Positions 2,130 to 13,941 of a DNA stretch of 64,000 nucleotides are shown one piece after another. Each line of letters begins with the position of its first letter. Position 1 is the first letter of the stretch. The notes beneath the pieces were generated by a model that saw only the letters and a program-made list of their open reading frames with translations, was not told the DNA's origin and ran no database searches. Source of the DNA: Candidatus Omnitrophota bacterium (GTDB lineage Bacteria > Omnitrophota > Gorgyraeia > Duberdicusellales > 4484-171); NCBI GenBank assembly GCA_043823745.1, contig JBDRAN010000016.1, forward strand, positions 1,243-65,242, in the 5' to 3' direction. The translations under genes were made by a program, and so were the position numbers.

Positions 2130-3026
2130 ATGGGATCATTCAAAAGTGAGTTAACCTGGTCAATTTCGCGCGACAGGCTTTTTCGCGAGTGCAAAAAAGC
2201 TTATTATTTTCACTATTATGCTTCCTGGGGCGGATGGGAGCGCAATGCGCCGGAACTATCCCGAAGAGCGTATCTTCTTCGTAATATTCAGAATATTGAC
2301 GCCTGGATCGGCGATATTGTTCACGAGGTTATTAAATGGGTGCTTACGCAGAAACAGCGAGGCGCGCTCCCGCCGTACGAACAGGCTATCGCCAAAACGA
2401 AACAGATGTTCCTTGCGACGTGGGAGCAGTCGCGAACACAAGCCTGGCGTAATAATGTAAAACACAATTGTAATCTTTTTGAGCATTATTATAAGCGTGA
2501 GCCCACACATGAAGAGCTTAAAGTAAAGTTATCCAAAGCGCAACGCAGCATTACCACCTTTTATGAGTGTGGTTTTCTTGAATCATTAGAGGGTTTATCG
2601 CCTGAGGCGTACGTAGCGGTCGATGAGCTTGATAGTTTTGATTTTGAAGGTATACGAGTTTTTGCGGTTCCTGATTTTGCTGTCCATAAGGATTCGTATG
2701 AATTGTATGATTGGAAAACCGGGAAGCCGAGCGATAACGATGTGCTTCAGCTATCTTGTTATGCTCTCTATGCGCAGGCCAAATGGCAGGCGGTTTTGGA
2801 ACATATACGGATTATTCCTGTTTATTTAGCCCAGGAAGATTTTGCGGTCAGCCCGTCTAGTATCATCGCCCCGGATGAAGTAAAGGTATATATGCGCGGC
2901 AGTATCGGCCAGATGAAGTCCTGTCTTTTTGATATCTCGGCGAATAAGGCCGATGAGCAGAAAATGTTCCGGACCACGGAGGCCTGGCGTTGTAAGAATT
3001 GTAAATTTCAAGAAATATGTCTTTAA
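2130..3026 (+). CDS. PD-(D/E)XK nuclease with Cas4/RecB-like Fe-S cysteine set
   Basis: PD…(D/E)xK core (VPDFAV … ELYDWKTGK). One N-terminal Cys (RECKKAYY) plus the C-terminal C-x2-C-x5-C (CKNCKFQEIC), the arrangement seen in Cas4/AddB-type 4Fe-4S nuclease domains. Confidence 0.6.
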   Translation: MGSFKSELTWSISRDRLFRECKKAYYFHYYASWGGWERNAPELSRRAYLLRNIQNIDAWIGDIVHEVIKWVLTQKQRGALPPYEQAIAKTKQMFLATWEQSRTQAWRNNVKHNCNLFEHYYKREPTHEELKVKLSKAQRSITTFYECGFLESLEGLSPEAYVAVDELDSFDFEGIRVFAVPDFAVHKDSYELYDWKTGKPSDNDVLQLSCYALYAQAKWQAVLEHIRIIPVYLAQEDFAVSPSSIIAPDEVKVYMRGSIGQMKSCLFDISANKADEQKMFRTTEAWRCKNCKFQEICL

Positions 3027-3160: not shown

Positions 3161-4399
3161 ATGACTCAACGAATAGTTATTACCGGTCTTGGCGTAGTAA
3201 GTCCCCTTGGCATAGGAAAAGAGGCATTCAGTAAAAACATATGCTCCGGCGTTTCGGGGGTGCGGCCTATCTCCTTGTTTGACACCGCTGATTTTGACGC
3301 TCAAACCGCGGCAGAGATAACGGATTTTGCTCCTGAGCAGTATGTGGGGAAAAAGGGGTTAAGGCTCCTTGATCGTAGCACAAAACTGACCCTTTGTGCT
3401 GCGCACCTTGCCTTGGATGATTCCGGTGTCAGCGTCACGGACGACAATACAAAGGAAATTGGTTTGGTTTTGGCTTCAACGTTTGGGAGCCTTTCCAGTA
3501 TCAGTAACTTTGATCGCGAGGCTCTCTTGGAAGGACCTCAATACGTTAATCCCGCACTTTTTTCAAATACCGTTATTAATTCGCCGGCCAGCCAAGCGTG
3601 TATTAAGTACGGTATTCGTGGTTTTAGCGCGACAATCTCGACCGGTTTTGGCGCAAGCCTTGATGCATTGCACTATGCCGCGTATTCTATACGAGCGGGG
3701 CGCGCCCGCATCGTGCTTGCCGGAGGAGTTGAGGAATTATGTATTCAGATTTTTTTGGGATTCTATAAGAGCGGGCTGCTTTCAATAAAATCTGAAAGAT
3801 TAACGGAAGAGATACGGCCGTTTGATCGAGAACGAAACGGGTTTGTGATAGGAGAAGGGGCGGTATTTTTAGTACTTGAAGAATTAAGGAGCGCCGAGGC
3901 TCGAGGAGCACGCATATACGCGGAGATGTCTGGTTATGGGAGCGGTTTTACGCCGCATTGCACGAGTCGTTATAGCCCGGGCCCTGAAGGATTAAAGCGT
4001 GCGATGCGCCAAGCTCTTGTCCACGGAAAACTTGTTCCGGGCGATATTGATTGCGTTTTTGCGGCGGCAAATGGAAGTCCAAAAGGAGATCGTTTTGAAG
4101 CGGAGGCGATACGCAATGTTTTTAGCAAGGAATCTTCTCGTCCGACAATAACCGCGGTAAAGTCAATGCTTGGAGAAACCTATAGCGCAGGGGGCTCTTT
4201 TGCTGCCGCGGCTGCGTTGTGTGCCCTGGAACGGCAGATGGTTCCGCCCACACTTCATCATGTAACGCCCGACCCCTCATGCACCGTTTCTTCGCTGGCA
4301 ACAGCGCCGCATGCGCACAGCTTGCGGCATGTCCTGGTCAATGCGGCCGGTCCCGGCGGGAACAATTCCAGCCTTGTGTTTTCGAAAGATTTCGGTTAA
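3161..4399 (+). CDS. beta-ketoacyl synthase-like protein lacking the Cys-His-His triad (chain-length-factor / KS-beta-like partner)
   Basis: Thiolase-fold KAS I/II-like sequence (MTQRIVITGLGVVSPLGIGKEAF…NAAGPGGNNSSLVF). The active-site Cys position reads S/T (FSATISTGFGAS), HGTGT is replaced by ANGSPKGD, and GHxxGAAG by GETYSAGG. Confidence 0.75.
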   Translation: MTQRIVITGLGVVSPLGIGKEAFSKNICSGVSGVRPISLFDTADFDAQTAAEITDFAPEQYVGKKGLRLLDRSTKLTLCAAHLALDDSGVSVTDDNTKEIGLVLASTFGSLSSISNFDREALLEGPQYVNPALFSNTVINSPASQACIKYGIRGFSATISTGFGASLDALHYAAYSIRAGRARIVLAGGVEELCIQIFLGFYKSGLLSIKSERLTEEIRPFDRERNGFVIGEGAVFLVLEELRSAEARGARIYAEMSGYGSGFTPHCTSRYSPGPEGLKRAMRQALVHGKLVPGDIDCVFAAANGSPKGDRFEAEAIRNVFSKESSRPTITAVKSMLGETYSAGGSFAAAAALCALERQMVPPTLHHVTPDPSCTVSSLATAPHAHSLRHVLVNAAGPGGNNSSLVFSKDFG

Positions 4400-4450
4400 A
4401 ATAGACGCAGTTTGTGTTAATATAAGATTTTACGTTCAGGAGGATATGCA

Positions 4451-4705
4451 ATGAGCGATATAGAAAAAGAGATACGGGAATTGATCGCGTATGTGCTTGA
4501 GCGAGAGCCATCGGAAATTACACCTGACGTGCGCCTGGTAGAGGATCTAGGAGTTGATTCGATGATGGCTCTTGAAATTCTAGCTGCTACAGAAAAAAAA
4601 TTTAAGATTTCTATTCCGGGAGAGCGTCTTCCTGAAATGAATACGTTGCGCGCAACCGTAGCGATCGCTCAAGAGTACCTGGATGCGAAAGGTCAGTCTC
4701 AATAA
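4451..4705 (+). CDS. acyl carrier protein
   Basis: 84 aa with the phosphopantetheine attachment motif LGVDSMMALE (DSL-type serine). RBS aggagga 7 nt upstream. Confidence 0.85.
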   Translation: MSDIEKEIRELIAYVLEREPSEITPDVRLVEDLGVDSMMALEILAATEKKFKISIPGERLPEMNTLRATVAIAQEYLDAKGQSQ

Positions 4706-4725
4706 CCCATCGTTCCTTTTCTCGC

Positions 4726-5937
4726 ATGAATACACGAATCGTTGCTACCGGCCTCGGGGTTATTTCCTCGTTAGGCATCGGCAAAGATACATTTTGGAAC
4801 GCGGTATGCAAAGGCATGTCGGGTATTTCCCCGGTCACGTCGTTTGATACTTCCGCGTTTCCCACTCACCGCGGCGGAGAAGTCAAGGATTTTAATCCTT
4901 TAGAATTTGTAGGTCAGCGCAAAGCTTCCGCGTTTGGCCGTTCCTCATTGTTTGCGGTCAGTGCTGCCTGTCTTGCCGCCCGTGATGCAAATATTGATTT
5001 TTCCGGAGCGCACGATCGCGCCGGGGTCTGCCTGGGGACCACGATGGGGGAAACAAGGCTTTTTGAGCGTCTTAATGAAGCATGGTCAAAAAAAGGCCAC
5101 CAGAGCATTGAGCCAGGCCTCTTACCGCAGATCCCGCCCTATAGTATGGCTGCTCATGTTGCATCTGAGTTCGGTTTACGGGGTCCGAATTACCTTATCC
5201 CGACAGCATGCGCCGCCGGTAATTACGCCATAGGGTATGCGTGTGATCTCATAAAAGATGGAACGGTTGATCTCATGCTTGCCGGAGGCGTTGACGCTTT
5301 TTCGCGCATAGCCTTTTGCGGTTTTAACCGCCTGTTAGCGGTAGCTCCCGAAGTCTGTCAGCCTTTTGATAAAAATAGAAAGGGGATGATGGTGGGCGAA
5401 GGGGCGGGTATTGTGCTTCTTGAAACTCTTGAACATGCGCGCAGCCGCGGCGCAACTATTTACGCTGAGGTTTTGGGGTACGGCGTCAGCTGTGATGCGT
5501 TCCATATGACCGCGCCCGCGCACCAGGGCATCAAAGAAGCGCTCTGTGCGACGCTGCGCGCGAGCAGCCTGAAGATTGGTGATGTTGATTACCTGAACGC
5601 TCACGGGACAGGTACTCCTGCTAACGACAAAGAAGAGTGCCGCGCGATCAAAGAGGTATTTGGCGATACTTACAAGAAACTGGCGGTAAGCTCTATAAAA
5701 TCGATGCTGGGTCACACCATGGGCGCCGCTTCCGCCCTGGAGGCAATTGCCTGCTGCCTTACGCTTAAATACGGGATTATTCCGCCTACGATTAATTTTT
5801 CAACTCCAGACCCTGACTGCGATATTGATTGCGTGCCGAATATCGCCCGTTGCCGCGACGTGCGCGTTGCGCTTAATAACGCGTTCGCGTTTGGCGGCAA
5901 TAATTCATGCCTTGCGCTTGCGAAATTCCCCTCTTAA
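4726..5937 (+). CDS. beta-ketoacyl-[ACP] synthase (active KS, FabF/FabB-like)
   Basis: Catalytic Cys in PTACAAGNYAIG, His in AHGTGTPANDKEE, His in SMLGHTMGAASALE. Typical KS N-terminus MNTRIVATGLGVISSLG. Confidence 0.85.
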   Translation: MNTRIVATGLGVISSLGIGKDTFWNAVCKGMSGISPVTSFDTSAFPTHRGGEVKDFNPLEFVGQRKASAFGRSSLFAVSAACLAARDANIDFSGAHDRAGVCLGTTMGETRLFERLNEAWSKKGHQSIEPGLLPQIPPYSMAAHVASEFGLRGPNYLIPTACAAGNYAIGYACDLIKDGTVDLMLAGGVDAFSRIAFCGFNRLLAVAPEVCQPFDKNRKGMMVGEGAGIVLLETLEHARSRGATIYAEVLGYGVSCDAFHMTAPAHQGIKEALCATLRASSLKIGDVDYLNAHGTGTPANDKEECRAIKEVFGDTYKKLAVSSIKSMLGHTMGAASALEAIACCLTLKYGIIPPTINFSTPDPDCDIDCVPNIARCRDVRVALNNAFAFGGNNSCLALAKFPS

Positions 5938-6000
5938 ATTTTCTTTCCTTCGGGAAAATATCATGTAACTTTATTTTTTTGTGCTATAATACGTTTTTGT

Positions 6001-6837
6001 ATGGAACCGGTTAATTCAAAAAAATATAATTTTTTTTTCAAAGGGACTAACGGCACAGCGGTCTTGTTGATCCACGGCATTACCGGCACGCCGTCGGAAA
6101 TGAGCTACCTTGGCCGTTCGCTGCATAAGGCCGGTTTTTCAGTCCTCTGTAACGCTCTCCCGAGGCATTGCGCAAGCTTGCATGAGCTTAAAAAGGTTAC
6201 CTGGCAGGAGATTGAGGCAGCGTGTGTTGCTGATTACGAGACCCTCAGCGCGCAGTACCAAAAAGTGTTCATCTGCGGGCTTTCTATGGGGGCGCTTCTG
6301 GCGGTGCATATCGCGCACAAGTTTGCGCACGGGGTAACCGGCATCATCGCGCTTGCACCAACTGTCTTTTATGATGGCTGGGCGCTCCATAAGGGTAAGA
6401 TTTTTCTCGATTTAGCATGGCATATTCCGTATTTGCGCAGGCGCATCAATATCAGGGAAGGCTGGCCGTACGGGCTTAAGGATGAGACAATACGCGGACA
6501 TATTGAACGTTTTTATAAAAGCGCGAACGCCGGCGCTCTTGACGATAAGGTGCTTTTGTTCGGGAGCCCGTTTTTTCCGCTCGCCTGCCTTTATCAGCAT
6601 CATCAGTTTGCCAAAGTAGTCAAAAAGGAATTGTCTGCAGTTTCGACCCCTATCCTTGCGGTTCACGCTCAAGAGGATGATATGGTCAGTATCAAAAACG
6701 CTCAATATCTTCTTGAGCATATCGGTTCGCCGGATAAAAAGTTAGTGACACTCCAGGACAGCTATCATATGATCACCATCGACAAGGAAAAAGACCGCGT
6801 TGCCCGGGAAGTTATCACGTTCATAAATAAATTCTAG
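6001..6837 (+). CDS. alpha/beta-hydrolase fold protein (esterase/thioesterase-like)
   Basis: GxSxG nucleophile elbow (GLSMGALLA), oxyanion-region HGITGT near the N-terminus, C-terminal D/H region. 278 aa. Confidence 0.65.
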   Translation: MEPVNSKKYNFFFKGTNGTAVLLIHGITGTPSEMSYLGRSLHKAGFSVLCNALPRHCASLHELKKVTWQEIEAACVADYETLSAQYQKVFICGLSMGALLAVHIAHKFAHGVTGIIALAPTVFYDGWALHKGKIFLDLAWHIPYLRRRINIREGWPYGLKDETIRGHIERFYKSANAGALDDKVLLFGSPFFPLACLYQHHQFAKVVKKELSAVSTPILAVHAQEDDMVSIKNAQYLLEHIGSPDKKLVTLQDSYHMITIDKEKDRVAREVITFINKF

Positions 6838-6844
6838 TCTAGGG

Positions 6845-8356
6845 ATGGATTACGATGTTGCTGTTATTGGGGCAGGAATCGGAGGGGTTACCGCCGCGTA
6901 TTTTCTTGCGCAGGAGGGTAAGCGGGTAATTCTTTTTGAGCGTGGGCCTCGCGTTGGCGGCTACGCTACAACGTTTAAGCGCAAAGGCTTTACTTTTGAG
7001 TCTTCAATTCATTGTGTTGACGATTTAGCTGATGACGGCGATTTTGCAACACTCCTTGCTGATTCAGGTCTATGGCAGAAAGTAACGTGCCTTCCCGCCA
7101 AGAGTTTTGCCCGCGTTATCTATCCGGAGCACGATTTTATTTTGGATGGCAGTAAAGATACTCTTTTCTCTTATTTTAAATCAACATTTCCCGAGCAGAG
7201 TAAGAACTTTGATAGGCTCAGCAGCGCGCTTGATCGTTTCTATGCTCAATTCGATACCTTCCGCGATTCACGCATCCCGGATTGGATAAATTTTCTTTTA
7301 GCGCCGCTTCGTTTTCCTTCTTTTCTTTCGCTTTCCAAAAAAACAGTTGAGGAATATTTGAGTGCGTACATAACCGATGCTAAAGCACGCGCGTTATTCG
7401 CGAATTTCTGGCATTTCTTAGGGTTACCTCCATCGCAGCTTTCGGCATTTTTTTTCTTTTTGGCCTTCCGGGGGTATTATTGCGATAAGCCGCATTATAT
7501 CCAGGGAGGTTTTAGTAGGCTCCTGGAGGGGATGGTCGAGGGGATAAAAGTAAAGGGTGGCCAGGTTCGTTTTAATACATCAGTGAGTTCTATTATCAGT
7601 GAGGATCAACGGGCGAACGGAGTTCTCACGGAAGCTGGCGAGTGTTTTTTTGTCCCCGCAATAATTTCGAACGTAAATGCTTTGGATACATTAACCAAAA
7701 TGCCCATTGAGGAGTCCATCAAAAAGAATTATCTTGCAAAACTTACCTCTATAGAAAAGTCAATCTCAGGGGTGCAAGTTTACCTTGGCCTTTCGGTTCC
7801 CGCGGCTTCTTTGGGTATGAATAGCCCGATGTTTTTTGTAAATGCAACCTACGATCATGACGCGACCTTTGCCTGCGCGACGAGAGAGGACTATGAGCAT
7901 TGCCTTCTTGAGATCGTCGATCACGCTCAAATCGATTCAACCCTGGCTCCTGTCGGTAAGGGAACCCTTGCGATTATGACGTGCGACCTCTATGAGCATT
8001 GGGCAACGCTCCCGCGGCATGAATATGAAGTAAAGAAGGAGGCTGTTGGTCGTAAGCTCATTGAACGCGTCGAGCGGCTTCTGCCTGGGCTTTCGAAGGC
8101 GATTGAGGTTATCGAGGTTGCCACCCCGCTTACCATGGAGCGCTATACGCGCGCACCGAGCGGCGCGTTGTATGGATTTGCAGCTACGGTTGATCAGGTT
8201 GGGCCGCGGCGTCTTGACCGGAAAACAAAAATGAAAGGTTTGTATCTTGCCGGAGCCTGGACACAGCCGGGTCACGGTGCTCACGCCTGTTTTCTCTCGG
8301 GGTATCTTGCCGCGCAGGAGGTGTGTACCTTTCTGGGGTCGAAAAAAAGATTCTAA
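6845..8356 (+). CDS. FAD-dependent oxidoreductase, phytoene-desaturase (CrtI/CrtD) family
   Basis: N-terminal dinucleotide-binding motif DVAVIGAGIGGVTAAYFLAQEGKRVILFERGPRVGG. Length 503 aa and overall architecture match the CrtI/amine-oxidase superfamily. Confidence 0.7.
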   Translation: MDYDVAVIGAGIGGVTAAYFLAQEGKRVILFERGPRVGGYATTFKRKGFTFESSIHCVDDLADDGDFATLLADSGLWQKVTCLPAKSFARVIYPEHDFILDGSKDTLFSYFKSTFPEQSKNFDRLSSALDRFYAQFDTFRDSRIPDWINFLLAPLRFPSFLSLSKKTVEEYLSAYITDAKARALFANFWHFLGLPPSQLSAFFFFLAFRGYYCDKPHYIQGGFSRLLEGMVEGIKVKGGQVRFNTSVSSIISEDQRANGVLTEAGECFFVPAIISNVNALDTLTKMPIEESIKKNYLAKLTSIEKSISGVQVYLGLSVPAASLGMNSPMFFVNATYDHDATFACATREDYEHCLLEIVDHAQIDSTLAPVGKGTLAIMTCDLYEHWATLPRHEYEVKKEAVGRKLIERVERLLPGLSKAIEVIEVATPLTMERYTRAPSGALYGFAATVDQVGPRRLDRKTKMKGLYLAGAWTQPGHGAHACFLSGYLAAQEVCTFLGSKKRF

Positions 8357-8378
8357 CCGATACGATGCTCTTTCCTTC

Positions 8379-9257
8379 ATGAAGTTCTTTTGGCTGTCAT
8401 TGTTTCTAATTCTTTCCTTATTATTTTTTTCATATCCCTGTTTTGCATTTGACCTGCGTGCGCTCCATGAGGAGGCAGATCGGACTTCATCTGCTGAAGC
8501 TCTTGCCAGGACAGCCCGCAGTAAAAACTCTCCGGATGCCTGGTATGTTTTGGGCCTTACCTATCTTAATGAACATAAGGATGATCTGGCACGTAGTGCA
8601 TTTGGGCGTGTGCACTCGATGAATCCCGCGAGTGTCGCGGGTCGTTGGGGAGAGGCTGAGGTTTTGCGTCGCAAGCATCAACTTAGGGAGAGCGAGAAGA
8701 TTTTGCATGACATTATCGTGCAATCGCCTCAGTTTTCACCAGCCTACATAACCCTTGCCTATATCAAATTCACCAATACCGATTACGCTATCGCAGTATC
8801 GTTGGCGAAGAAGGTCATCGCGCAAGGCAAAGAAAATGTTGATATCAATAATTATACGAGAGCGTATCTTATCGTGGCCGGCAGCCGGGGGATGCTTGCG
8901 CATTACGGAGGGCCGATTGCCAAAGTTACCCAGGGCACTCGCGTATTCAGTATGTTAAAAAAAGCGGAAAGTTTCCAACCTTTCTCAAGCGGAGTTTATT
9001 TTGGTTTGGGTTCATTTTATTTTCTCGCACCCTTTTTTGTCGGGGGTAACATTGATATCGCGGCCGAATATTTTATAAAAGCCATAACCGCTGACCCTTT
9101 ATTTGCCGATTCGTATGCGCGCCTTGCGCAAGTGTATAAACTAAAAAACGATACTGTCCGCTACCACGACCTCATCAAAAAAGCTTTGGATATTGATCCG
9201 GGCAATGAGCTTGCCCTTGATGTACAAAGCGGCCGCTGTAGTTTCATCTGTCCGTAA
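8379..9257 (+). CDS. secreted TPR-repeat protein
   Basis: Signal-peptide-like N-terminus MKFFWLSLFLILSLLFFSYPCFA. TPR-like helical repeats (WYVLGLTYLNEHKDDLARSAFGRV…; AYITLAYIKF…). The ORF-track start at 8247 overlaps the upstream gene, so the internal ATG at 8379 is preferred. Confidence 0.5.
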   Translation: MKFFWLSLFLILSLLFFSYPCFAFDLRALHEEADRTSSAEALARTARSKNSPDAWYVLGLTYLNEHKDDLARSAFGRVHSMNPASVAGRWGEAEVLRRKHQLRESEKILHDIIVQSPQFSPAYITLAYIKFTNTDYAIAVSLAKKVIAQGKENVDINNYTRAYLIVAGSRGMLAHYGGPIAKVTQGTRVFSMLKKAESFQPFSSGVYFGLGSFYFLAPFFVGGNIDIAAEYFIKAITADPLFADSYARLAQVYKLKNDTVRYHDLIKKALDIDPGNELALDVQSGRCSFICP

Positions 9258-10304
9258 TTAAGCCTTCCTTAAGATTATTTCTTCGCTATACGAGATTAGT
9301 TGTTTTCGGTATGGTTCGCGCAGGGGGATGGTTTTGATGGTGCGGCAGGCCTTTTCGACGAATGAGGATATTGTCTGCTCGGCGTACTCAAGGGTTCCCG
9401 CATCGCGTATAATGCGTTGTATTATCAAATGCTCTGCTTGCGTGACGATTTTTGCTTCTAAGATTTTTCGTATGATCGTTTTTGTTTTTGCGCTACTGTG
9501 GCGCCAGGCATGCCAGATAAGAATTGTTTTTTTAGCTTCCTGCAGGTCGGACATCGTTGATTTTCCTATTTTTGTTTCATCTCCAAAAAGGCCTAAAATA
9601 TCATCACGTATCTGAAATGCCCTTCCCCAGAGTATTCCGCAGCGTTCTAATGTATCGAGTGTCCTTCCCGTTGTTCCCGCGAGTATCCCTGCGGTTGTCA
9701 GGGGGCAGACAAAGGTGTAGTGAGCGGTCTTGTAGTCGTATATGTTGGTTACGGTTTTACTCGTTATGTTGTCTATCGCTTCTGCCCCGTAGAGCAACTC
9801 GATAAATTCACCACTTCCCGTAAATACCGCGGCTTCAACTAATTTACGTAACGCTTTTTCCTTGCGTGTGGGGTCCTCATTAATACTGATGAATGCAGCG
9901 ATTGCCATGGCATAGAGGATGTCGCCGATTACTAGACTTAGGTCCTGGCCGTTGAATTTAATATGAGCATACTGCGCTAAGTGATTCCCGAGCTGCGCGT
10001 GCAGCGATGGTTTATCGCGTCTGCGTTCCGCTTTATCAATAATGTCATCGTGGATGAGCATGAAGGTGTGTAATAACTCTATGGCGATAGCGCTGCGATA
10101 AAGCCCCGTTTGCCTGTGGCGTGCTAGGCCTTTGTAGGCAAGGACAAAAAGAGTAGGCCGCAGGCGCTTTCCCGGCCGCAAAACAAATTCTTTGAGGTGC
10201 TTGGCAAGAAGGGGAGAAAGGCGTTTGAGCCGGTAGAGGCGTTCGGCATCGCGCAGGAAACGCGAAAGCTCTTTTTCGATTCTATTTTTTATTTCCAAAA
10301 CCAT
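9258..10304 (-). CDS. polyprenyl diphosphate synthase (trans-isoprenyl diphosphate synthase family)
   Basis: First aspartate-rich motif LIHDDIIDKAERRR and second motif FQIRDDILGLFGDETKIGKS. 348 aa. One of only two minus-strand genes in the window. Confidence 0.8.
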   Translation of the reverse strand: MVLEIKNRIEKELSRFLRDAERLYRLKRLSPLLAKHLKEFVLRPGKRLRPTLFVLAYKGLARHRQTGLYRSAIAIELLHTFMLIHDDIIDKAERRRDKPSLHAQLGNHLAQYAHIKFNGQDLSLVIGDILYAMAIAAFISINEDPTRKEKALRKLVEAAVFTGSGEFIELLYGAEAIDNITSKTVTNIYDYKTAHYTFVCPLTTAGILAGTTGRTLDTLERCGILWGRAFQIRDDILGLFGDETKIGKSTMSDLQEAKKTILIWHAWRHSSAKTKTIIRKILEAKIVTQAEHLIIQRIIRDAGTLEYAEQTISSFVEKACRTIKTIPLREPYRKQLISYSEEIILRKA

Positions 10305-10357
10305 AGTGCTTTATGGTATCATAATCCTAATATTCCGACAAACAAAATATAGGTGTT

Positions 10358-11299
10358 ATGGCTCACCATGAGAATCGCACAACTCCCGGAATTACTGCTT
10401 ATCTGCGCGCCTTGCGCCTCCCTTTTGCCACCGCAAGCATCTTTCCTTTTTTAGCCGGTTCTTTCTTGCCGCATAGTGCTTTTCGCGGTATCAAGTGTAT
10501 GTTGGGCCTGGGTGCGGCTCTTTTTACACATTTGGCAGCTAATCTGATCAATGATTACGCTGATTCAAAATCAGGCGCTGACTGGCAGGACGTCAATTTT
10601 TATAAATTTTTTGGCGGTTCAAAGCTGATACAAGAGGGTGTTTTTTCTGAAAAGTTCTATCTGCGTTTTGCTATAGCCTGCGGTAGTTTTGCAACTCTCT
10701 GCGTGATATTGTTGGCTGTTCTGCTCAGCAATGCTTCAATTGTTATTTTTTATGGCATTATCGTGTTCTTAGGTTTTTCATATTCCCATAAGCCTCTGCA
10801 ATTTTCGTACCGGCGCATGGGAGAGTTTATTATTTTCATTCTTTTTGGCCCGACTCTGGTTATGGGTGGATATTTTATACAGACCGGAAAATTTCCCGCC
10901 ATCGAAAGTTTTTTGGTTTCCCTTCCCTTTGCTTTTTTTACCACGGCAATTTTGTTTTCTAATGAAATACCGGATTACGAGACTGACATAAAGGTAAAAA
11001 AATTTACCTGGGTGAGCATTACCGGAAAATCTTCGGCGTTTATTCTGTACGGCGTGCTGATGGCCGCCGGATTCATCTCTATAGCTAGTAATATCGCGCG
11101 CGGGAATCTGAGCCTGATTTCTTTGTGTTCGTATCTGGCCCTCGTGCCTGCCGTGAAGGCATTCTCCATCTTAAAAGGGCACTACAACGATAAAGTGCAA
11201 TTAATGCGCTCATCACAGTTGACCATTGGAGTGCAAGTCTTAACGAGTATCATCATGATAATCGATATAATAAAGGGACAGGTTCATTTAATTTATTGA
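10358..11299 (+). CDS. UbiA-family aromatic prenyltransferase (MenA/UbiA-like)
   Basis: Polytopic membrane protein with the UbiA Asp-rich motif NLINDYADSKSGAD and a second D-rich region (EIPDYETD). 313 aa. Confidence 0.75.
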   Translation: MAHHENRTTPGITAYLRALRLPFATASIFPFLAGSFLPHSAFRGIKCMLGLGAALFTHLAANLINDYADSKSGADWQDVNFYKFFGGSKLIQEGVFSEKFYLRFAIACGSFATLCVILLAVLLSNASIVIFYGIIVFLGFSYSHKPLQFSYRRMGEFIIFILFGPTLVMGGYFIQTGKFPAIESFLVSLPFAFFTTAILFSNEIPDYETDIKVKKFTWVSITGKSSAFILYGVLMAAGFISIASNIARGNLSLISLCSYLALVPAVKAFSILKGHYNDKVQLMRSSQLTIGVQVLTSIIMIIDIIKGQVHLIY

Positions 11300-11330: not shown

Positions 11331-12026
11331 ATGCCACGAGTAGCCCGGAGCATTCTTTCCGATATACCATATCACATCATTCATAGAGGCAATAACCGTC
11401 AAAAGATATTTTTTTCCGACTCTGATCACCTCTATTTTTTATCATTGATGCACGAAGCTAAGAAGAAGCATCCATGCAAGATATACTCGTATGCCTTAAT
11501 GCCAAATCATGTTCATTTTCTTTTAGAGTCTTTCCAGCAAGTCGAAAATCTTGCCAAATTTGTTAAATTAGTAGCGCAGAAATACGCGCAATATATAAAT
11601 AAAGCTCAGAGAAGAACAGGTACGTTATGGGAGGGCAGGTTCAAGAGTTCGCCCGTATCCCAGGATAGCTATTTATTGGCCTGTACCAGATATATAGAGC
11701 TGAATTCCGTAAGAGCAAATATTATTAACGATCCTGCTGATTATAAATGGAGCAGCTATAGATTCAAAACAGGTGATAGAAACTTTTGTTCATTGCTAGA
11801 TATGGATCCGCTCTATACAGACTTAGGCAGCGATGAAAAGGAGAGGCAGGCTAATTACAAGAAATGGTTCAGTCAGAGCATCCCGGAGGAAGAATGGGAT
11901 CTTATACGTAAAGCAGTGAATAAAGGAGGCGTTTTTGGAAATATTCAATTTAAGGAAAAACTGGAAAGACTGCTTGGGAGAAAGCTCGATATAAGAAAGA
12001 GGGGAAGGCCTGAAAAGAATGATTAA
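11331..12026 (+). CDS. IS200/IS605-type Y1 (HUH) transposase, REP-associated tyrosine transposase (RAYT)-like
   Basis: HUH motif HVHFLLE, catalytic Tyr region GTLWEGRFKSSPVSQDSYLLACTRYIELNSVRANI. 231 aa. No tnpB partner and no obvious terminal hairpins. Confidence 0.7.
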   Translation: MPRVARSILSDIPYHIIHRGNNRQKIFFSDSDHLYFLSLMHEAKKKHPCKIYSYALMPNHVHFLLESFQQVENLAKFVKLVAQKYAQYINKAQRRTGTLWEGRFKSSPVSQDSYLLACTRYIELNSVRANIINDPADYKWSSYRFKTGDRNFCSLLDMDPLYTDLGSDEKERQANYKKWFSQSIPEEEWDLIRKAVNKGGVFGNIQFKEKLERLLGRKLDIRKRGRPEKND

Positions 12027-12112: not shown

Positions 12113-12742
12113 ATGATGAAGAAATTACTACATATTATCGCGACCCCGCGTGCTGAAGCGTCAGCAACGCTTAAGATTTCCGGAGAATTTCTTACATGTT
12201 GTGCCGATGAGCGTAGGGATTGGAAAATAGAAACACTGAATCTTTTTGATAAAAAGTTGCCGGCATTGACTGTTCAGCACATAGAGGGGAAATTCCATTT
12301 GTTGGGAGGGGAAGATTTGCCTGATGAGTTAAAGGAAGCTTGGAGGGAGCTCATCGTCTATATTGAACAATTTTCTTTTACGGACGAGTATTTAATCTCC
12401 TGCCCGATGTGGAATTTTAGCATTCCTTATGTTTTGAAGCACTATCTTGATATCATTGTTCAACCGAAATATTTATTTCGCTACACTCCGAACGGCCCCG
12501 AAGGCCTTATGAAGAATAAAAAAATGGTGATAATCACATCCCGCGGCGGCGATTATTCCGGCGAACCGGCCCGGTCATATGACCATCAAATCCCGTACTT
12601 AAAGGCTATTTTCAATTTTGTAGGCATTACCGATATCCGGTTTATCAACGCGCAACCCATGGATGCCATGGGGCCCGATATCCGGAGAGCAAAGATTGAA
12701 ACCGCGTCGTCAGAGGCGAAGACAATAGCTTTGCGATTTTAG
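12113..12742 (+). CDS. FMN-dependent NADH-azoreductase / flavodoxin-like (AzoR/AcpD family)
   Basis: N-terminus MKKLLHIIATPR…S.S and the family motif CPMWNFSIPYVLKHYLD. About 200 aa. Confidence 0.65.
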   Translation: MMKKLLHIIATPRAEASATLKISGEFLTCCADERRDWKIETLNLFDKKLPALTVQHIEGKFHLLGGEDLPDELKEAWRELIVYIEQFSFTDEYLISCPMWNFSIPYVLKHYLDIIVQPKYLFRYTPNGPEGLMKNKKMVIITSRGGDYSGEPARSYDHQIPYLKAIFNFVGITDIRFINAQPMDAMGPDIRRAKIETASSEAKTIALRF

Positions 12743-12753
12743 CGCATCACGCG

Positions 12754-13485
12754 ATGAAAAAGATTTCTCTTAAACTACAATTATCGTTAGCTCTTTTTTT
12801 ATATGCGATAGTTTTGTCTGCGCAGGAACATAGTTTATCCTTTTTAGGAAAATGTATAATAGCGGTTGCCTCGTGCGCGTTTTTTGACTCACTCTATTCT
12901 TTTATTAAATCGAAGAAGTTCCGCATAACCGAAAGTTCCTTAATTACCGGGCTCATTATCGGGTTTGTGTTGGTATCCTCAGCTTCATGGTGGTTTTTTG
13001 TATTGGCGGGATTCTTGGCAATTAATTCAAAGTATTTCATCCGGTTTAAAGAAAAGCACATTTTCAATCCCGCTGCCGCGGGAATCTTTTCAGTTGTGCT
13101 TATCGGTAATCAAGCTACGCAGTGGCACGGGGCATTTGCCAGCTATTTCATTATACCTTTCGGGTTGTATATAGCTTGGCGGATACGAAAAATCTCTATT
13201 GTCTGCGCTTACTTTTTAATGTCTATTTTTTTATCGGCAATGTACGCCTATTGTTCGAAGCGGCCGTTTATCGATCAGATACAATACGCCAACTACTTTT
13301 TTATGTTTGTCATGCTTATCGAACCAAAAACATCGCCCTTTGGTTCCCGGCAAAAGGTGGTATTCGGTTTATTGGTCAGCCTAAGCGCTTTTATTTTATA
13401 TACTGTAAAATTTGCCTATGATGCGGATTTACCCGCGCTCTTAATCGGTAATTTATTATTTGTGTTATTCGGTAGAAAAGGGTAG
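12754..13485 (+). CDS. hypothetical polytopic membrane protein
   Basis: 243 aa, several hydrophobic segments. No recognisable catalytic motif. Confidence 0.4.
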   Translation: MKKISLKLQLSLALFLYAIVLSAQEHSLSFLGKCIIAVASCAFFDSLYSFIKSKKFRITESSLITGLIIGFVLVSSASWWFFVLAGFLAINSKYFIRFKEKHIFNPAAAGIFSVVLIGNQATQWHGAFASYFIIPFGLYIAWRIRKISIVCAYFLMSIFLSAMYAYCSKRPFIDQIQYANYFFMFVMLIEPKTSPFGSRQKVVFGLLVSLSAFILYTVKFAYDADLPALLIGNLLFVLFGRKG

Positions 13486-13500
13486 AAAGGGAGGGCGGGT

Positions 13501-13941
13501 ATGGATAAAAAAATCAGCAGGCGCGAGTTTCTAAAAAAGGGAACGCAGATTGTAGCGGGTGCGGTTGCTCTGAGCGCGTGTGGCGATTTGTTTTCCATGG
13601 ATCTATTCACCAAGAGGAACATTAATGAGGTAGCTGCCGGGGACGATAACTTTGTTGTTTATTTGAGCGTCTTGGAAAAAGACAAGGCAGTAAATTTTAT
13701 GTATAAGGAAAAAAAAGCGATCGTACTTTATAACGGCGGGGACGTAAAAGCTTTCGAAAATATCTGTACGCATAAGGGTGGATTGACTAAATTGGTGAGC
13801 GATAAACTCGTTTGTCAATGGCATGGCGCCCTTTTTGATCCGGTAACAGGTATTGCCCTGAAGGGGCCTGCTCCTAGCGGGTCAAGACTTCCCTCGATAC
13901 CGGTGCGCGTGCGCGATGAAAAAATATATGTGAACGCGTGA
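13501..13941 (+). CDS. Rieske [2Fe-2S] domain protein with Tat signal
   Basis: Twin-arginine motif SRREFLKKG followed by a hydrophobic stretch. Rieske ligand boxes CTHKGG and CQWHGALFD. Confidence 0.7.
   Translation: MDKKISRREFLKKGTQIVAGAVALSACGDLFSMDLFTKRNINEVAAGDDNFVVYLSVLEKDKAVNFMYKEKKAIVLYNGGDVKAFENICTHKGGLTKLVSDKLVCQWHGALFDPVTGIALKGPAPSGSRLPSIPVRVRDEKIYVNA

Follow-up and report, generated by a model that had tools for sequence, protein, structure and literature searches.

The question raised by this locus is whether a ketosynthase (KS) without catalytic residues, an acyl carrier protein (ACP), an intact partner KS and the isoprenoid genes that follow them form one biosynthetic cluster or more than one. 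The genes lie at positions 3161-11299 of a 64-kb stretch of DNA from Candidatus Omnitrophota bacterium (contig JBDRAN010000016.1), and this whole stretch is referred to below as the window. A preliminary description of the same sequence had treated them as a compact cluster for a prenylated polyketide, a quinone-like compound or a pigment lipid. The comparisons made here point instead to two adjacent and separable modules, a reading to which a probability of about 0.7 was assigned: module A (3161-8356), a specialised acyl-lipid module with a ketosynthase/chain length factor (KS/CLF) pair, and module B (8379-11299), an isoprenoid block. Module A would be a minimal Omnitrophota version of the system resembling fatty acid synthase that is known from Cluster I of anammox bacteria. 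The genes and their immediate flanks are listed below (coordinates in the window, strand, product and the match on which the assignment rests).

2130..3026, plus strand: PD-(D/E)XK (Cas4-like) nuclease (Pfam PDDEXK_1)
3161..4399, plus strand: KS1, a FabF paralogue without the catalytic triad (Pfam ketoacyl-synt N- and C-terminal domains)
4451..4705, plus strand: ACP with a DSM serine motif (Pfam PP-binding)
4726..5937, plus strand: KS2, amxFabF2-type ketosynthase, Cys-His-His triad intact (PDB match, tree clade)
6001..6837, plus strand: alpha/beta serine hydrolase of the monoacylglycerol-lipase/Est30/LipS type (Pfam Hydrolase_4)
6845..8356, plus strand: FAD flavoenzyme of the CrtI superfamily, CrtISO/RetSat-like (NCBIfam crtI_fam and carot_isom, both below cutoff)
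8379..9257, plus strand: secreted tetratricopeptide repeat (TPR) protein (Pfam TPR families)
9258..10304, minus strand: polyprenyl diphosphate synthase, probably of the short-chain type (Pfam polyprenyl_synt)
10358..11299, plus strand: UbiA-family (MenA/UBIAD1-like) membrane prenyltransferase (Pfam UbiA, 81.8 against a cutoff of 34.2)
11331..12026, plus strand: IS200/IS605-type Y1 transposase (Pfam Y1_Tnp in the precomputed annotation of the same locus)

The open reading frame listing together with the Pfam and NCBIfam scans recovered all eight genes of the preliminary description (KS1 to UbiA), with the coordinates and families given there. The same locus is also found on a 9.5-kb contig of GCA_018827245.1, and database entries of 100% identity, assigned to Candidatus Omnitrophota, exist for KS1, the flavoenzyme and UbiA. 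Translation of the TPR protein probably begins at the ATG at 8379, giving a length of 292 amino acids that agrees with the NCBI annotation of this locus, and the TTG at 8247 is probably not used. From KS1 to the TPR gene all genes are on one strand and tightly spaced, with gaps of 7-63 bp (KS1-ACP 51 bp, ACP-KS2 20 bp, KS2-hydrolase 63 bp, hydrolase-flavoenzyme 7 bp, flavoenzyme-TPR 22 bp). The polyprenyl synthase gene is convergent with the TPR gene, which it abuts at 9257/9258, and divergent from the UbiA gene, from which it is separated by 53 bp.

The alignment of KS1 with E. coli FabF and KS2 bore out the earlier observation that KS1 lacks all three catalytic residues, with a correction of detail. 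The position of the active-site Cys, previously read as Ser or Thr, is occupied by Phe (motif STGFGAS), and the Ser and Thr stand 2-3 residues upstream, so that a small misalignment was involved. The residue at His303 is Ala, and the Asn follows one position later. His340 is replaced by Glu, as claimed, and Lys335 is retained. When 120 KS1 homologues (about 50% identity) were aligned, Phe stood at the Cys position in 111 and Tyr in 6 of them, and the second His column is Glu and the Lys is kept in 120/120. Because the substitutions are fixed across homologues, the loss of the triad is a stable, selected state of a conserved family and not the result of chance or recent decay. One related locus (related loci are designated below by L and a number) contained two complete dead-KS modules in tandem (L086:5470-15802), with Tyr at the Cys position in one and Phe in the other.

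A search of all PDB sequences revealed 9s5h_C as the best match of KS1 (328.5 bits), with B. subtilis FabF as the runner-up (249 bits). For KS2 the best match was 9s5h_B (496 bits, about 55% identity), followed by the ishigamide ketosynthase Iga11 (342 bits). In 9s5h_C the triad is replaced by Val/Asn/Glu, 9s5h_B is intact, and the entry 9s5i adds an ACP chain; we infer that these entries represent the amxFabFmut/amxFabF2/amxACP complex of the anammox bacterium B. fulgida described in bioRxiv 10.64898/2026.05.19.726425. The top three PDB matches of the window ACP, 7qv0_D, 7auf_A and 9s5i_E (53.6-49.2 bits), are taken to be amxACPs, the last being the ACP chain of the heterodimer entry, and their margin over canonical ACPs (36-43 bits) is modest. 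A basic EKKFK stretch after helix II of the window ACP was read from the PDB alignment. The best reciprocal sequence matches between the window and the anammox system run subunit for subunit, with identities of 42% for KS1-amxFabFmut, 55% for KS2-amxFabF2 and roughly 40% for ACP-amxACP, and KS1 and KS2 are 34% identical to each other. As some Omnitrophota family members reach 50-52% identity to amxFabFmut, equal to the identities within the family, the anammox proteins sit inside the diversity of the KS1 family.

The preliminary description had called for a KS phylogeny and had considered the possibility that both proteins nest inside canonical FabF/FabB clades. In a neighbour-joining tree of 181 KS sequences, with bootstraps calculated on an 82-taxon subset, the triad-less clade comprising amxFabFmut and KS1 was monophyletic in 100/100 replicates and the clade of KS2 and amxFabF2 was recovered in 91/100. 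The 22 ordinary FabFs sampled and E. coli FabF were all placed outside both module clades, and two divergent extra KS paralogues encoded in the same clusters were placed between them. Several related loci also encode a third KS paralogue with intact Cys-His-His and 23-29% identity to KS2, usually beside the flavoenzyme gene (L044:4874-6016, L045:8864-10078, L086:14597-15802, L089:13166-14377, L100:14583-15761, L101:4176-5387). In the tree, third KS paralogues stood between the module clades and canonical FabF.

In the anammox system, amxFabF2 and amxFabFmut are each inactive alone and co-purify as an obligate heterodimer, the pair decarboxylates malonyl-amxACP and forms acetoacetyl-ACP, and it favours C6-C8 saturated probes (bioRxiv 10.64898/2026.05.19.726425). 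According to the same preprint, the dead subunit contributes Phe135 and Val139 to the tunnel lining, these residues affect the chain-length preference, and the structural homologue closest to amxFabF2 is Iga11. All three tunnel residues of amxFabFmut (Phe135, Thr138 and Val139) are conserved in KS1, as Phe134, Thr137 and Val138, and occur in 90, 91 and 89, respectively, of 93 family members; they differ in KS2-type proteins and canonical FabFs. An earlier comparison of K. stuttgartiensis proteins gave the residues of Kuste2805 as Phe/Asn/Lys/Glu and those of Kuste3606 as Val/Asn/Lys/Glu (Rattray et al., PMC2649909 Table 2), the same residue pattern as that of KS1. KS2 was correctly described as intact, as it retains Cys-His-His and the gate Phe. 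KS1 is predicted to be a chain-length-factor-like subunit and an orthologue-type relative of amxFabFmut, and KS2 the catalytic subunit. The 42% and 55% identities to the crystallised subunits suggest that the two form a KS1:KS2 heterodimer in this organism. The PDB matches, the tree and the preprint together support the earlier proposal that the dead KS, the dedicated ACP and the intact KS belong to a KS/CLF-type heterodimer of a specialised lipid pathway.

The same data bear on a simpler explanation, in which KS1 and KS2 are housekeeping FabF paralogues, KS1 being a decaying, pseudogene-like copy with unrelated neighbours. The strongest model for both proteins was indeed the FabF equivalog TIGR03150, with scores below its cutoff (330 bits for KS1 and 428 bits for KS2 against 494), KS2 exceeded the cutoff of the broader PRK07314 subfamily model (409 against 387), and in some relatives the module adjoins plsX-fabH-fabD-fabG. 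However, both proteins fall outside the ordinary FabFs in the tree, and the KS1 substitutions are fixed in over 100 homologues while Lys335 and the tunnel residues are kept, which indicates purifying selection for a non-catalytic role. Moreover, L110, L053, L062 and L058 carry canonical fab genes alongside the module. The housekeeping explanation was consequently regarded as very improbable.

The neighbourhood of the KS module was examined in 86 non-redundant loci encoding a KS1-family protein (from genomes, metagenomes and assemblies), with the neighbours scored by tblastn. A scan of genome contigs with single-query patterns returned mainly canonical FabFs, whereas the metagenome scan with the family alignment was far more informative and gave at least 554 matches to KS1-family patterns. 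Neighbours were counted in the 31 loci with at least 6 kb of sequence downstream of KS1. In this set KS2 was found in 29/31 loci, ACP in 28/31, a FabZ/ApeI-like dehydratase (DH) in 27/31 and a ketoreductase (KR) in 25/31. A CrtI-superfamily flavoenzyme of any type was detected in 21/31 loci, 18 of them with the type closest to kuste3607 (32% identity) and 3 with the type present in the window. A thioester-reductase-domain protein was found in 5/31 loci and the hydrolase of the window in 3/31. Homologues of TPR, polyprenyl synthase, UbiA, crtB or crtI were detected in 0/31 loci, and in 0/86 overall within about 10 kb. The DH of the relatives matches the Pfam ApeI-like and ApeP-like families, and that of L028 had amxFabZ as its best PDB match by a small margin (117.6 against 107 bits). 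The usual Omnitrophota module consists of five of the six gene types of anammox Cluster I plus a KR and minus the B12-dependent radical S-adenosylmethionine (SAM) enzyme.

The shorter order KS1-ACP-KS2 of the window, without KR and DH, is shared with L116 and with the closest relative, L113/L114 (KS1 identity 55%). As the gaps between the KS genes and the ACP gene measure only 51 and 20 bp, no KR or DH remnants lie between them. In L113/L114 a PDDEXK gene with 64% identity to that of the window directly precedes KS1, the order being PDDEXK-KS1-ACP-KS2 followed by a FemAB-like gene, and isoprenoid genes are not found there. The nuclease is a syntenic upstream neighbour that serves as a boundary marker and lies outside the pathway. 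A 351-amino-acid minus-strand gene after KS2 in L114 was considered as a polyprenyl synthase gene and rejected, as its product proved to be a FemAB-like/Acetyltransf_6 protein, 53% identical to that of L116.

In L110:16147-21144, and also in L111 and L112, the order is KS1-KR-ACP-DH-KS2-hydrolase-flavoenzyme, and this module lies directly 5' of a housekeeping fatty-acid/phospholipid cluster with the genes rsmD(-like)-coaD-yceD-rpmF-plsX-fabH-fabD-fabG. The module of L058 similarly adjoins yceD-plsX-fabH. Because it adjoins housekeeping fab genes in L110, the module supplements ordinary fatty-acid synthesis and does not replace it, and it is positioned with lipid genes.

In one subclade, dihydrolipoyl-dehydrogenase-like, lipoate-ligase-like (LplA-B_cat) and small lipoyl-carrier genes stand 5' of the module (L028:7309-9500), and probably the same lipoyl genes lie upstream of 8819 in L006. 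A role of the module in supplying octanoyl-ACP or lipoate, conceivable from the C6-C8 preference, was set aside, as the synteny occurs in one subclade and the flavoenzyme and reductase would be left unexplained. A dead-KS module in L115 is interrupted between its ACP and DH genes by a gene for a ParE-type toxin and a small partner gene (L115:20257-20756).

The likeness to anammox Cluster I raises the possibility of a ladderane lipid cluster, as antiSMASH labels such KS pairs. KS1, KS2 and the ACP are homologous to Cluster I proteins, and antiSMASH 'ladderane' clusters have been reported in Omnitrophota metagenome-assembled genomes (PMC9902471). However, tblastn detected no homologue of the B12-radical SAM enzymes kuste3608/kuste3342 in the 64-kb window, the amxFabZ-type dehydratase is also absent from it, and the flavoenzyme is not of the kuste3607 subfamily. 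In addition, ladderane lipids have been reported from anammox Planctomycetota only (PMC9902471; bioRxiv 10.64898/2026.05.19.726425). Ladderane synthesis by this locus is therefore extremely improbable.

L058 was the only one of about 86 related loci with a B12-radical SAM enzyme, and thus the sole case of a Cluster-I-like radical SAM neighbour outside anammox-type sequence. In this locus (L058:111-10742, metagenome contig Ga0209254_10001667) a methyltransferase, a dead KS, a DH, KS2 and an ACP are followed by the radical SAM gene, whose product is 29% identical to kuste3608. A histidine kinase gene comes next, and then fabH, plsX and yceD on the opposite strand. The dead KS of L058 is of the Phe/Ser/Glu type, which is Omnitrophota-like and not the anammox Val type.

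The hydrolase and the flavoenzyme, which the preliminary description had placed in the same cluster as the KS genes, proved to be genuine companions of the KS module. In all, they were counted adjacent to it in 4 independent loci and within 6 kb of it in 1. The pair, at 61-65% identity, recurs beside it in L001/L110-112, L097 and L116, and 6 kb away in L115. The hydrolase has a GLSMG nucleophile elbow and keeps Asp and His candidates; it resembles bacterial monoacylglycerol lipases and Est30-type carboxylesterases, its PDB match being 5xks, a thermostable monoacylglycerol lipase (100.8 bits). From this resemblance it is predicted to act as a release or acyl-transfer enzyme. A FemAB-like/Acetyltransf_6 gene coding for 351-398 amino acids often stands on the opposite strand just 5' of the hydrolase-flavoenzyme pair (L097:8779-9975(-), L114:3990-5045(-), L115:7761-8921(-), L116:7928-9073(-)) and is absent in the window.

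The flavoenzyme scored below the cutoff of every carotenoid model (NCBIfam crtI_fam 158.5 bits against 238.1, carot_isom 154.4 against 586.9). It belongs to a subfamily of about 70 homologues of 44-54% identity, nearly all from Omnitrophota, which bear the JGI name prolycopene isomerase, more distant ones being named retinol saturase. The PDB sequence search with the flavoenzyme returned no solved CrtISO or RetSat structure. Its identity to kuste3607, kuste3336 and Pantoea CrtI is 25-27% (kuste sequences from PMC4790861 Table S6). Orthology with kuste3607 was rejected, as the common AO28-type flavoenzyme of the relatives is closer to that protein (32%, 180 bits) than the window enzyme is (25.6%, 96 bits). 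The flavoenzyme is predicted to act on C=C bonds of the acyl chain, with isomerisation or saturation slightly favoured by the subfamily resemblance.

If the parts are put together, KS2 alone would be catalytic, and KS1 would contribute part of the acyl-binding tunnel and help to set the chain lengths accepted. By analogy with the anammox enzymes, the heterodimer would prime synthesis on the dedicated ACP by decarboxylation of malonyl-ACP and then extend the chain. For the KR and DH steps, enzymes acting in trans are assumed, such as the housekeeping FabG and FabZ. A C=C bond of the chain would then be isomerised, saturated or desaturated by the CrtISO/RetSat-like flavoenzyme, and the lipase-like hydrolase would release or transfer the product, a step that falls to a thioester reductase in other variants. 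Module A would make a specialised fatty-acyl lipid, neither a ladderane nor an aromatic polyketide.

The relatives encode KS/CLF, KR, DH and ACP without an enoyl reductase, which makes a polyene or some other unsaturated chain an attractive candidate for the product. In its most specific form this would be a conjugated polyene acyl chain of the ishigamide or aryl-polyene kind on which the flavoenzyme acts. CrtI-family enzymes act on conjugated polyenes. The ApeI-like/ApeP-like DH matches of the relatives fit such a product, and Iga11 is both the second-best PDB match of KS2 and, according to the preprint, the closest structural homologue of amxFabF2. The window, however, encodes neither KR nor DH, and FabG, FabZ and FabI acting in trans would give a saturated chain. 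The anammox heterodimer favoured saturated probes and a polyene product was not shown for it. Moreover, KS1 is unrelated to CLFs of the Iga12/ApeC type, Iga12 (6kxd_B) being outside the best 60 of its 71 PDB matches (E<=1e-30). This specific version of module A is unlikely.

The UbiA protein of module B is one of a large family in Omnitrophota, for which more than 120 homologues (52-60% identity) were found. In L118 (CP070807.1, 1.8 Mb; block at L118:2098-11742) and L120 (L120:3069-10502), crtI, a phytoene/squalene-synthase-family gene (crtB) and two 102-amino-acid lycopene-cyclase-domain genes are followed by a TPR gene and then by polyprenyl synthase on the minus strand, UbiA, Pyr_redox_2 and DoxX. 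In L119 (L119:6070-10428) the order is lytB, polyprenyl synthase, UbiA, Pyr_redox_2 and DoxX. UbiA is divergent from polyprenyl synthase in all three, and no KS gene was found within 8 kb of the UbiA block in any of them. The CrtI encoded beside crtB in L118 scores 422.6 bits on crtI_fam and is a true CrtI, and the TPR gene of L118 stands between the lycopene-cyclase genes and polyprenyl synthase.

The TPR protein, synthase and UbiA of the window are 55, 54 and 57% identical to the L118 trio, with order and orientation alike. Matches to crtI, crtB, lycopene cyclases, lytB, Pyr_redox_2 and DoxX were absent from the 64-kb window, and directly after UbiA, at the place of Pyr_redox_2/DoxX in the relatives, stands the Y1 transposase gene, which marks the downstream break of the isoprenoid block. 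Because a homologous trio is intact in L118 while its usual partners are gone from the window, the trio is, as far as sequence comparison tells, a fragment of a separate conserved isoprenoid block. In this lineage the genes that normally accompany module B would have been lost, and the block would have ended up beside module A and next to the IS200-type transposase. The preliminary description had also allowed for the downstream genes being conserved unrelated neighbours of the KS genes; this was what was found for the isoprenoid genes, whereas the nesting of the KS pair in canonical FabF/FabB, named together with it, was not observed. A similar Y1_Tnp gene was noticed about 5 kb downstream in L120.

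The isoprenoid block is of either a carotenoid or a quinone type. The best models for UbiA were MenA models, all below cutoff (best 104.8 against 264; TIGR00751 69.8 against 102), its sole PDB match was UBIAD1, and no men genes were seen in the window or in L118-L120. The best NCBIfam matches of the polyprenyl synthase were encapsulin-cargo polyprenyl transferase, geranylgeranyl diphosphate (GGPP) synthase and IdsA. A Phe stands at position -5 of its DDIID motif, a feature that in polyprenyl synthases leads to short chains, and the enzyme is probably of the short-chain type, making GGPP.

The genes of the two modules are nevertheless contiguous, and the preliminary description had joined all eight into one cluster in which the KS/CLF chain is prenylated by UbiA to give a prenylated polyketide, a quinone-like compound or a pigment lipid. 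The co-directional run from KS1 to the TPR gene, with its short gaps including the 22 bp after the flavoenzyme gene, speaks for this model, as do the lack of a convincing terminator between the genes and the presence of a CrtI-family enzyme at the spot of the crt genes in other Omnitrophota. The comparative data speak against it. The trio was found within about 10 kb of KS1 in 0/86 loci, so that one prenylated-polyketide/quinone cluster of hydrolase, flavoenzyme, TPR, synthase and UbiA is not supported. In the three sampled genomes the trio or its synthase-UbiA part formed a conserved Omnitrophota block of its own, KS-free in 3/3, with carotenoid genes beside 2 and Pyr_redox_2/DoxX beside 3. 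The closest relative continues after KS2 with the FemAB-like gene, not with isoprenoid genes. The polyprenyl synthase gene is on the opposite strand, and the IS200-type transposase at the flank suggests a rearrangement. Furthermore, the Pfam hits for 1525-22773 included no aromatase, cyclase or aromatic-acid-forming enzyme that could provide an acceptor for UbiA. The adjacency of block and KS module is peculiar to this lineage, the comparative evidence gives no support for a shared pathway, and the one-cluster model is quite unlikely.

Several points weigh against the reading as two modules with module A of the anammox type. The first concerns module A itself, as tblastn with the L028 proteins revealed no KR or DH homologue in the 64-kb window, and a module without the KR and DH of most relatives may work differently or be partly disabled. 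Its flavoenzyme is not of the kuste3607 type, unlike that of most related loci. The heterodimer is predicted from homology (42% and 55%), and 9s5h/9s5i were equated with the structures of the preprint indirectly, because the PDB copy gives no organism. A charge count of the interface segments (helix-loop-helix and partner helix) did not reproduce the published electrostatic asymmetry, even for the crystallised chains. The separation of the modules is also open to objection. The TPR gene follows the flavoenzyme gene co-directionally at 22 bp, which makes its co-transcription with module A possible. A promoter/terminator scan gave counts equal to the shuffled expectation, with no terminator above chance between the modules, and the contexts of the UbiA family come from a small sample of three genomes (L118, L119, L120).

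Beyond the two modules, tRNA-Arg(TCG) and tRNA-Ser(GGA) genes are located at 1243-1442, followed by the nuclease gene, just 5' of KS1; tRNAs were the only hits in the Rfam scan of the window. On the 3' side of the transposase, the region 12113-13941 encodes a Flavodoxin_2 protein (NAD(P)H:quinone-oxidoreductase-like), an RnfD/NqrB-family membrane protein and a Rieske protein, which is small and has a Tat-like leader. The RnfD/NqrB-family protein is short (243 amino acids) and covers the first part of the model only.

Ladderane biosynthesis is a long-standing open question, and the heterodimer of a dead and a live FabF described in 2026 is its only biochemically characterised piece. Cluster I is still held to be ladderane-specific, with the role of its flavoenzyme unknown (bioRxiv 10.64898/2026.05.19.726425; 2026 review). 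In the searchable literature, 'ladderane' calls for biosynthetic gene clusters outside anammox bacteria, including those in Omnitrophota, appear only as unexplained antiSMASH hits (PMC9902471, PMC11968836). The Omnitrophota family with its Phe/Glu signature, the two release variants and the minimal form without KR and DH appear to be undescribed there. It can be proposed tentatively, with the chances judged a little short of even, that the KS/CLF pair, ACP, DH and phytoene-dehydrogenase-like enzyme of anammox Cluster I are an offshoot of a large lipid module common in Omnitrophota and are not ladderane-specific. If this is true, the module serves bacteria other than anammox to make an acyl lipid that is probably unsaturated or a polyene, ladderane formation is set apart by the radical SAM step alone, and the window holds the minimal, hydrolase-releasing variant.

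The conservation of the subunit pair and ACP in this locus and roughly 86 relatives from Omnitrophota narrows what is ladderane-specific. The natural variants, with KR and DH present or absent and with release by hydrolase or thioester reductase, can help to work out the product of the core module. A caution also follows for genome annotation: antiSMASH 'ladderane' calls in such genomes mark another lipid pathway and not ladderanes, and cluster predictions should keep the genes for polyprenyl synthase and UbiA apart from the KS genes.

Compared with known systems, the locus did not test as a complete ladderane cluster or an aromatic type II polyketide synthase (PKS), nor did its proteins test as canonical FabF, true CrtI/CrtISO or MenA. 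For module B, carotenoid clusters (crtE, crtB, crtI, split lycopene cyclase, UbiA) are one point of reference; the window has the synthase and UbiA and lacks crtI, crtB and the cyclases. The layout of L118/L120, with crt genes and UbiA, is similar to that of C50-carotenoid-type clusters with a UbiA-type elongase, yet the UbiA scores best on MenA models. The MenA/UBIAD1 quinone prenyltransferases provide the best model and PDB matches of the window UbiA, although its MenA scores are below cutoff.

Among KS/CLF systems, actinorhodin KS-alpha/CLF (PDB 1tqy) likewise combines an active and an inactive KS-fold subunit with a dedicated ACP, and its cavity is shaped by the inactive subunit. KS1, however, scored 166 bits to the actinorhodin CLF and 173 bits to the actinorhodin KS, as opposed to 328 bits to 9s5h_C. 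The CLF of aromatic type II PKSs has Gln at the Cys position where KS1 has Phe, and the window lacks their typical cyclase, aromatase and ketoreductase, with no cyclase/aromatase families among the Pfam hits for 1525-22773. The origin of the dead subunit, from FabF-like ancestors, appears to be separate from that of the CLF of aromatic PKSs. The ishigamide system Iga11/Iga12 (PDB 6kxd) and the aryl-polyene systems share with the relatives of the module the combination of KS/CLF, KR, DH and ACP without an enoyl reductase. In contrast, KS1 is not a CLF of the Iga12 or ApeC type, the window has no KR or DH, and none of the aryl-polyene accessories (aryl starter, LolA-like, MMPL exporter, acyl-/glycosyltransferases) is encoded in it.

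The closest likeness is to anammox Cluster I (K. stuttgartiensis kuste3603-3608; B. fulgida). The differences are that KS1 has Phe at the Cys position where the anammox proteins have Val or Thr, that the window lacks the FabZ-type DH and the B12-radical SAM enzyme and has an added monoacylglycerol-lipase-like hydrolase, that the gene order is different (dead KS, ACP, live KS in the window), and that the host belongs to Omnitrophota and not Planctomycetota. Common to both are the dead FabF, the intact FabF2-type KS, the dedicated ACP and a CrtI-superfamily flavoenzyme. KS1 and amxFabFmut share the hydrophobic residue at the Cys position, the Asn near the first His, the Glu at the second His, the Lys and the Phe/Thr/Val tunnel. 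By every sequence feature tested, the locus belongs to the KS/CLF family of the amxFabFmut/amxFabF2 type.

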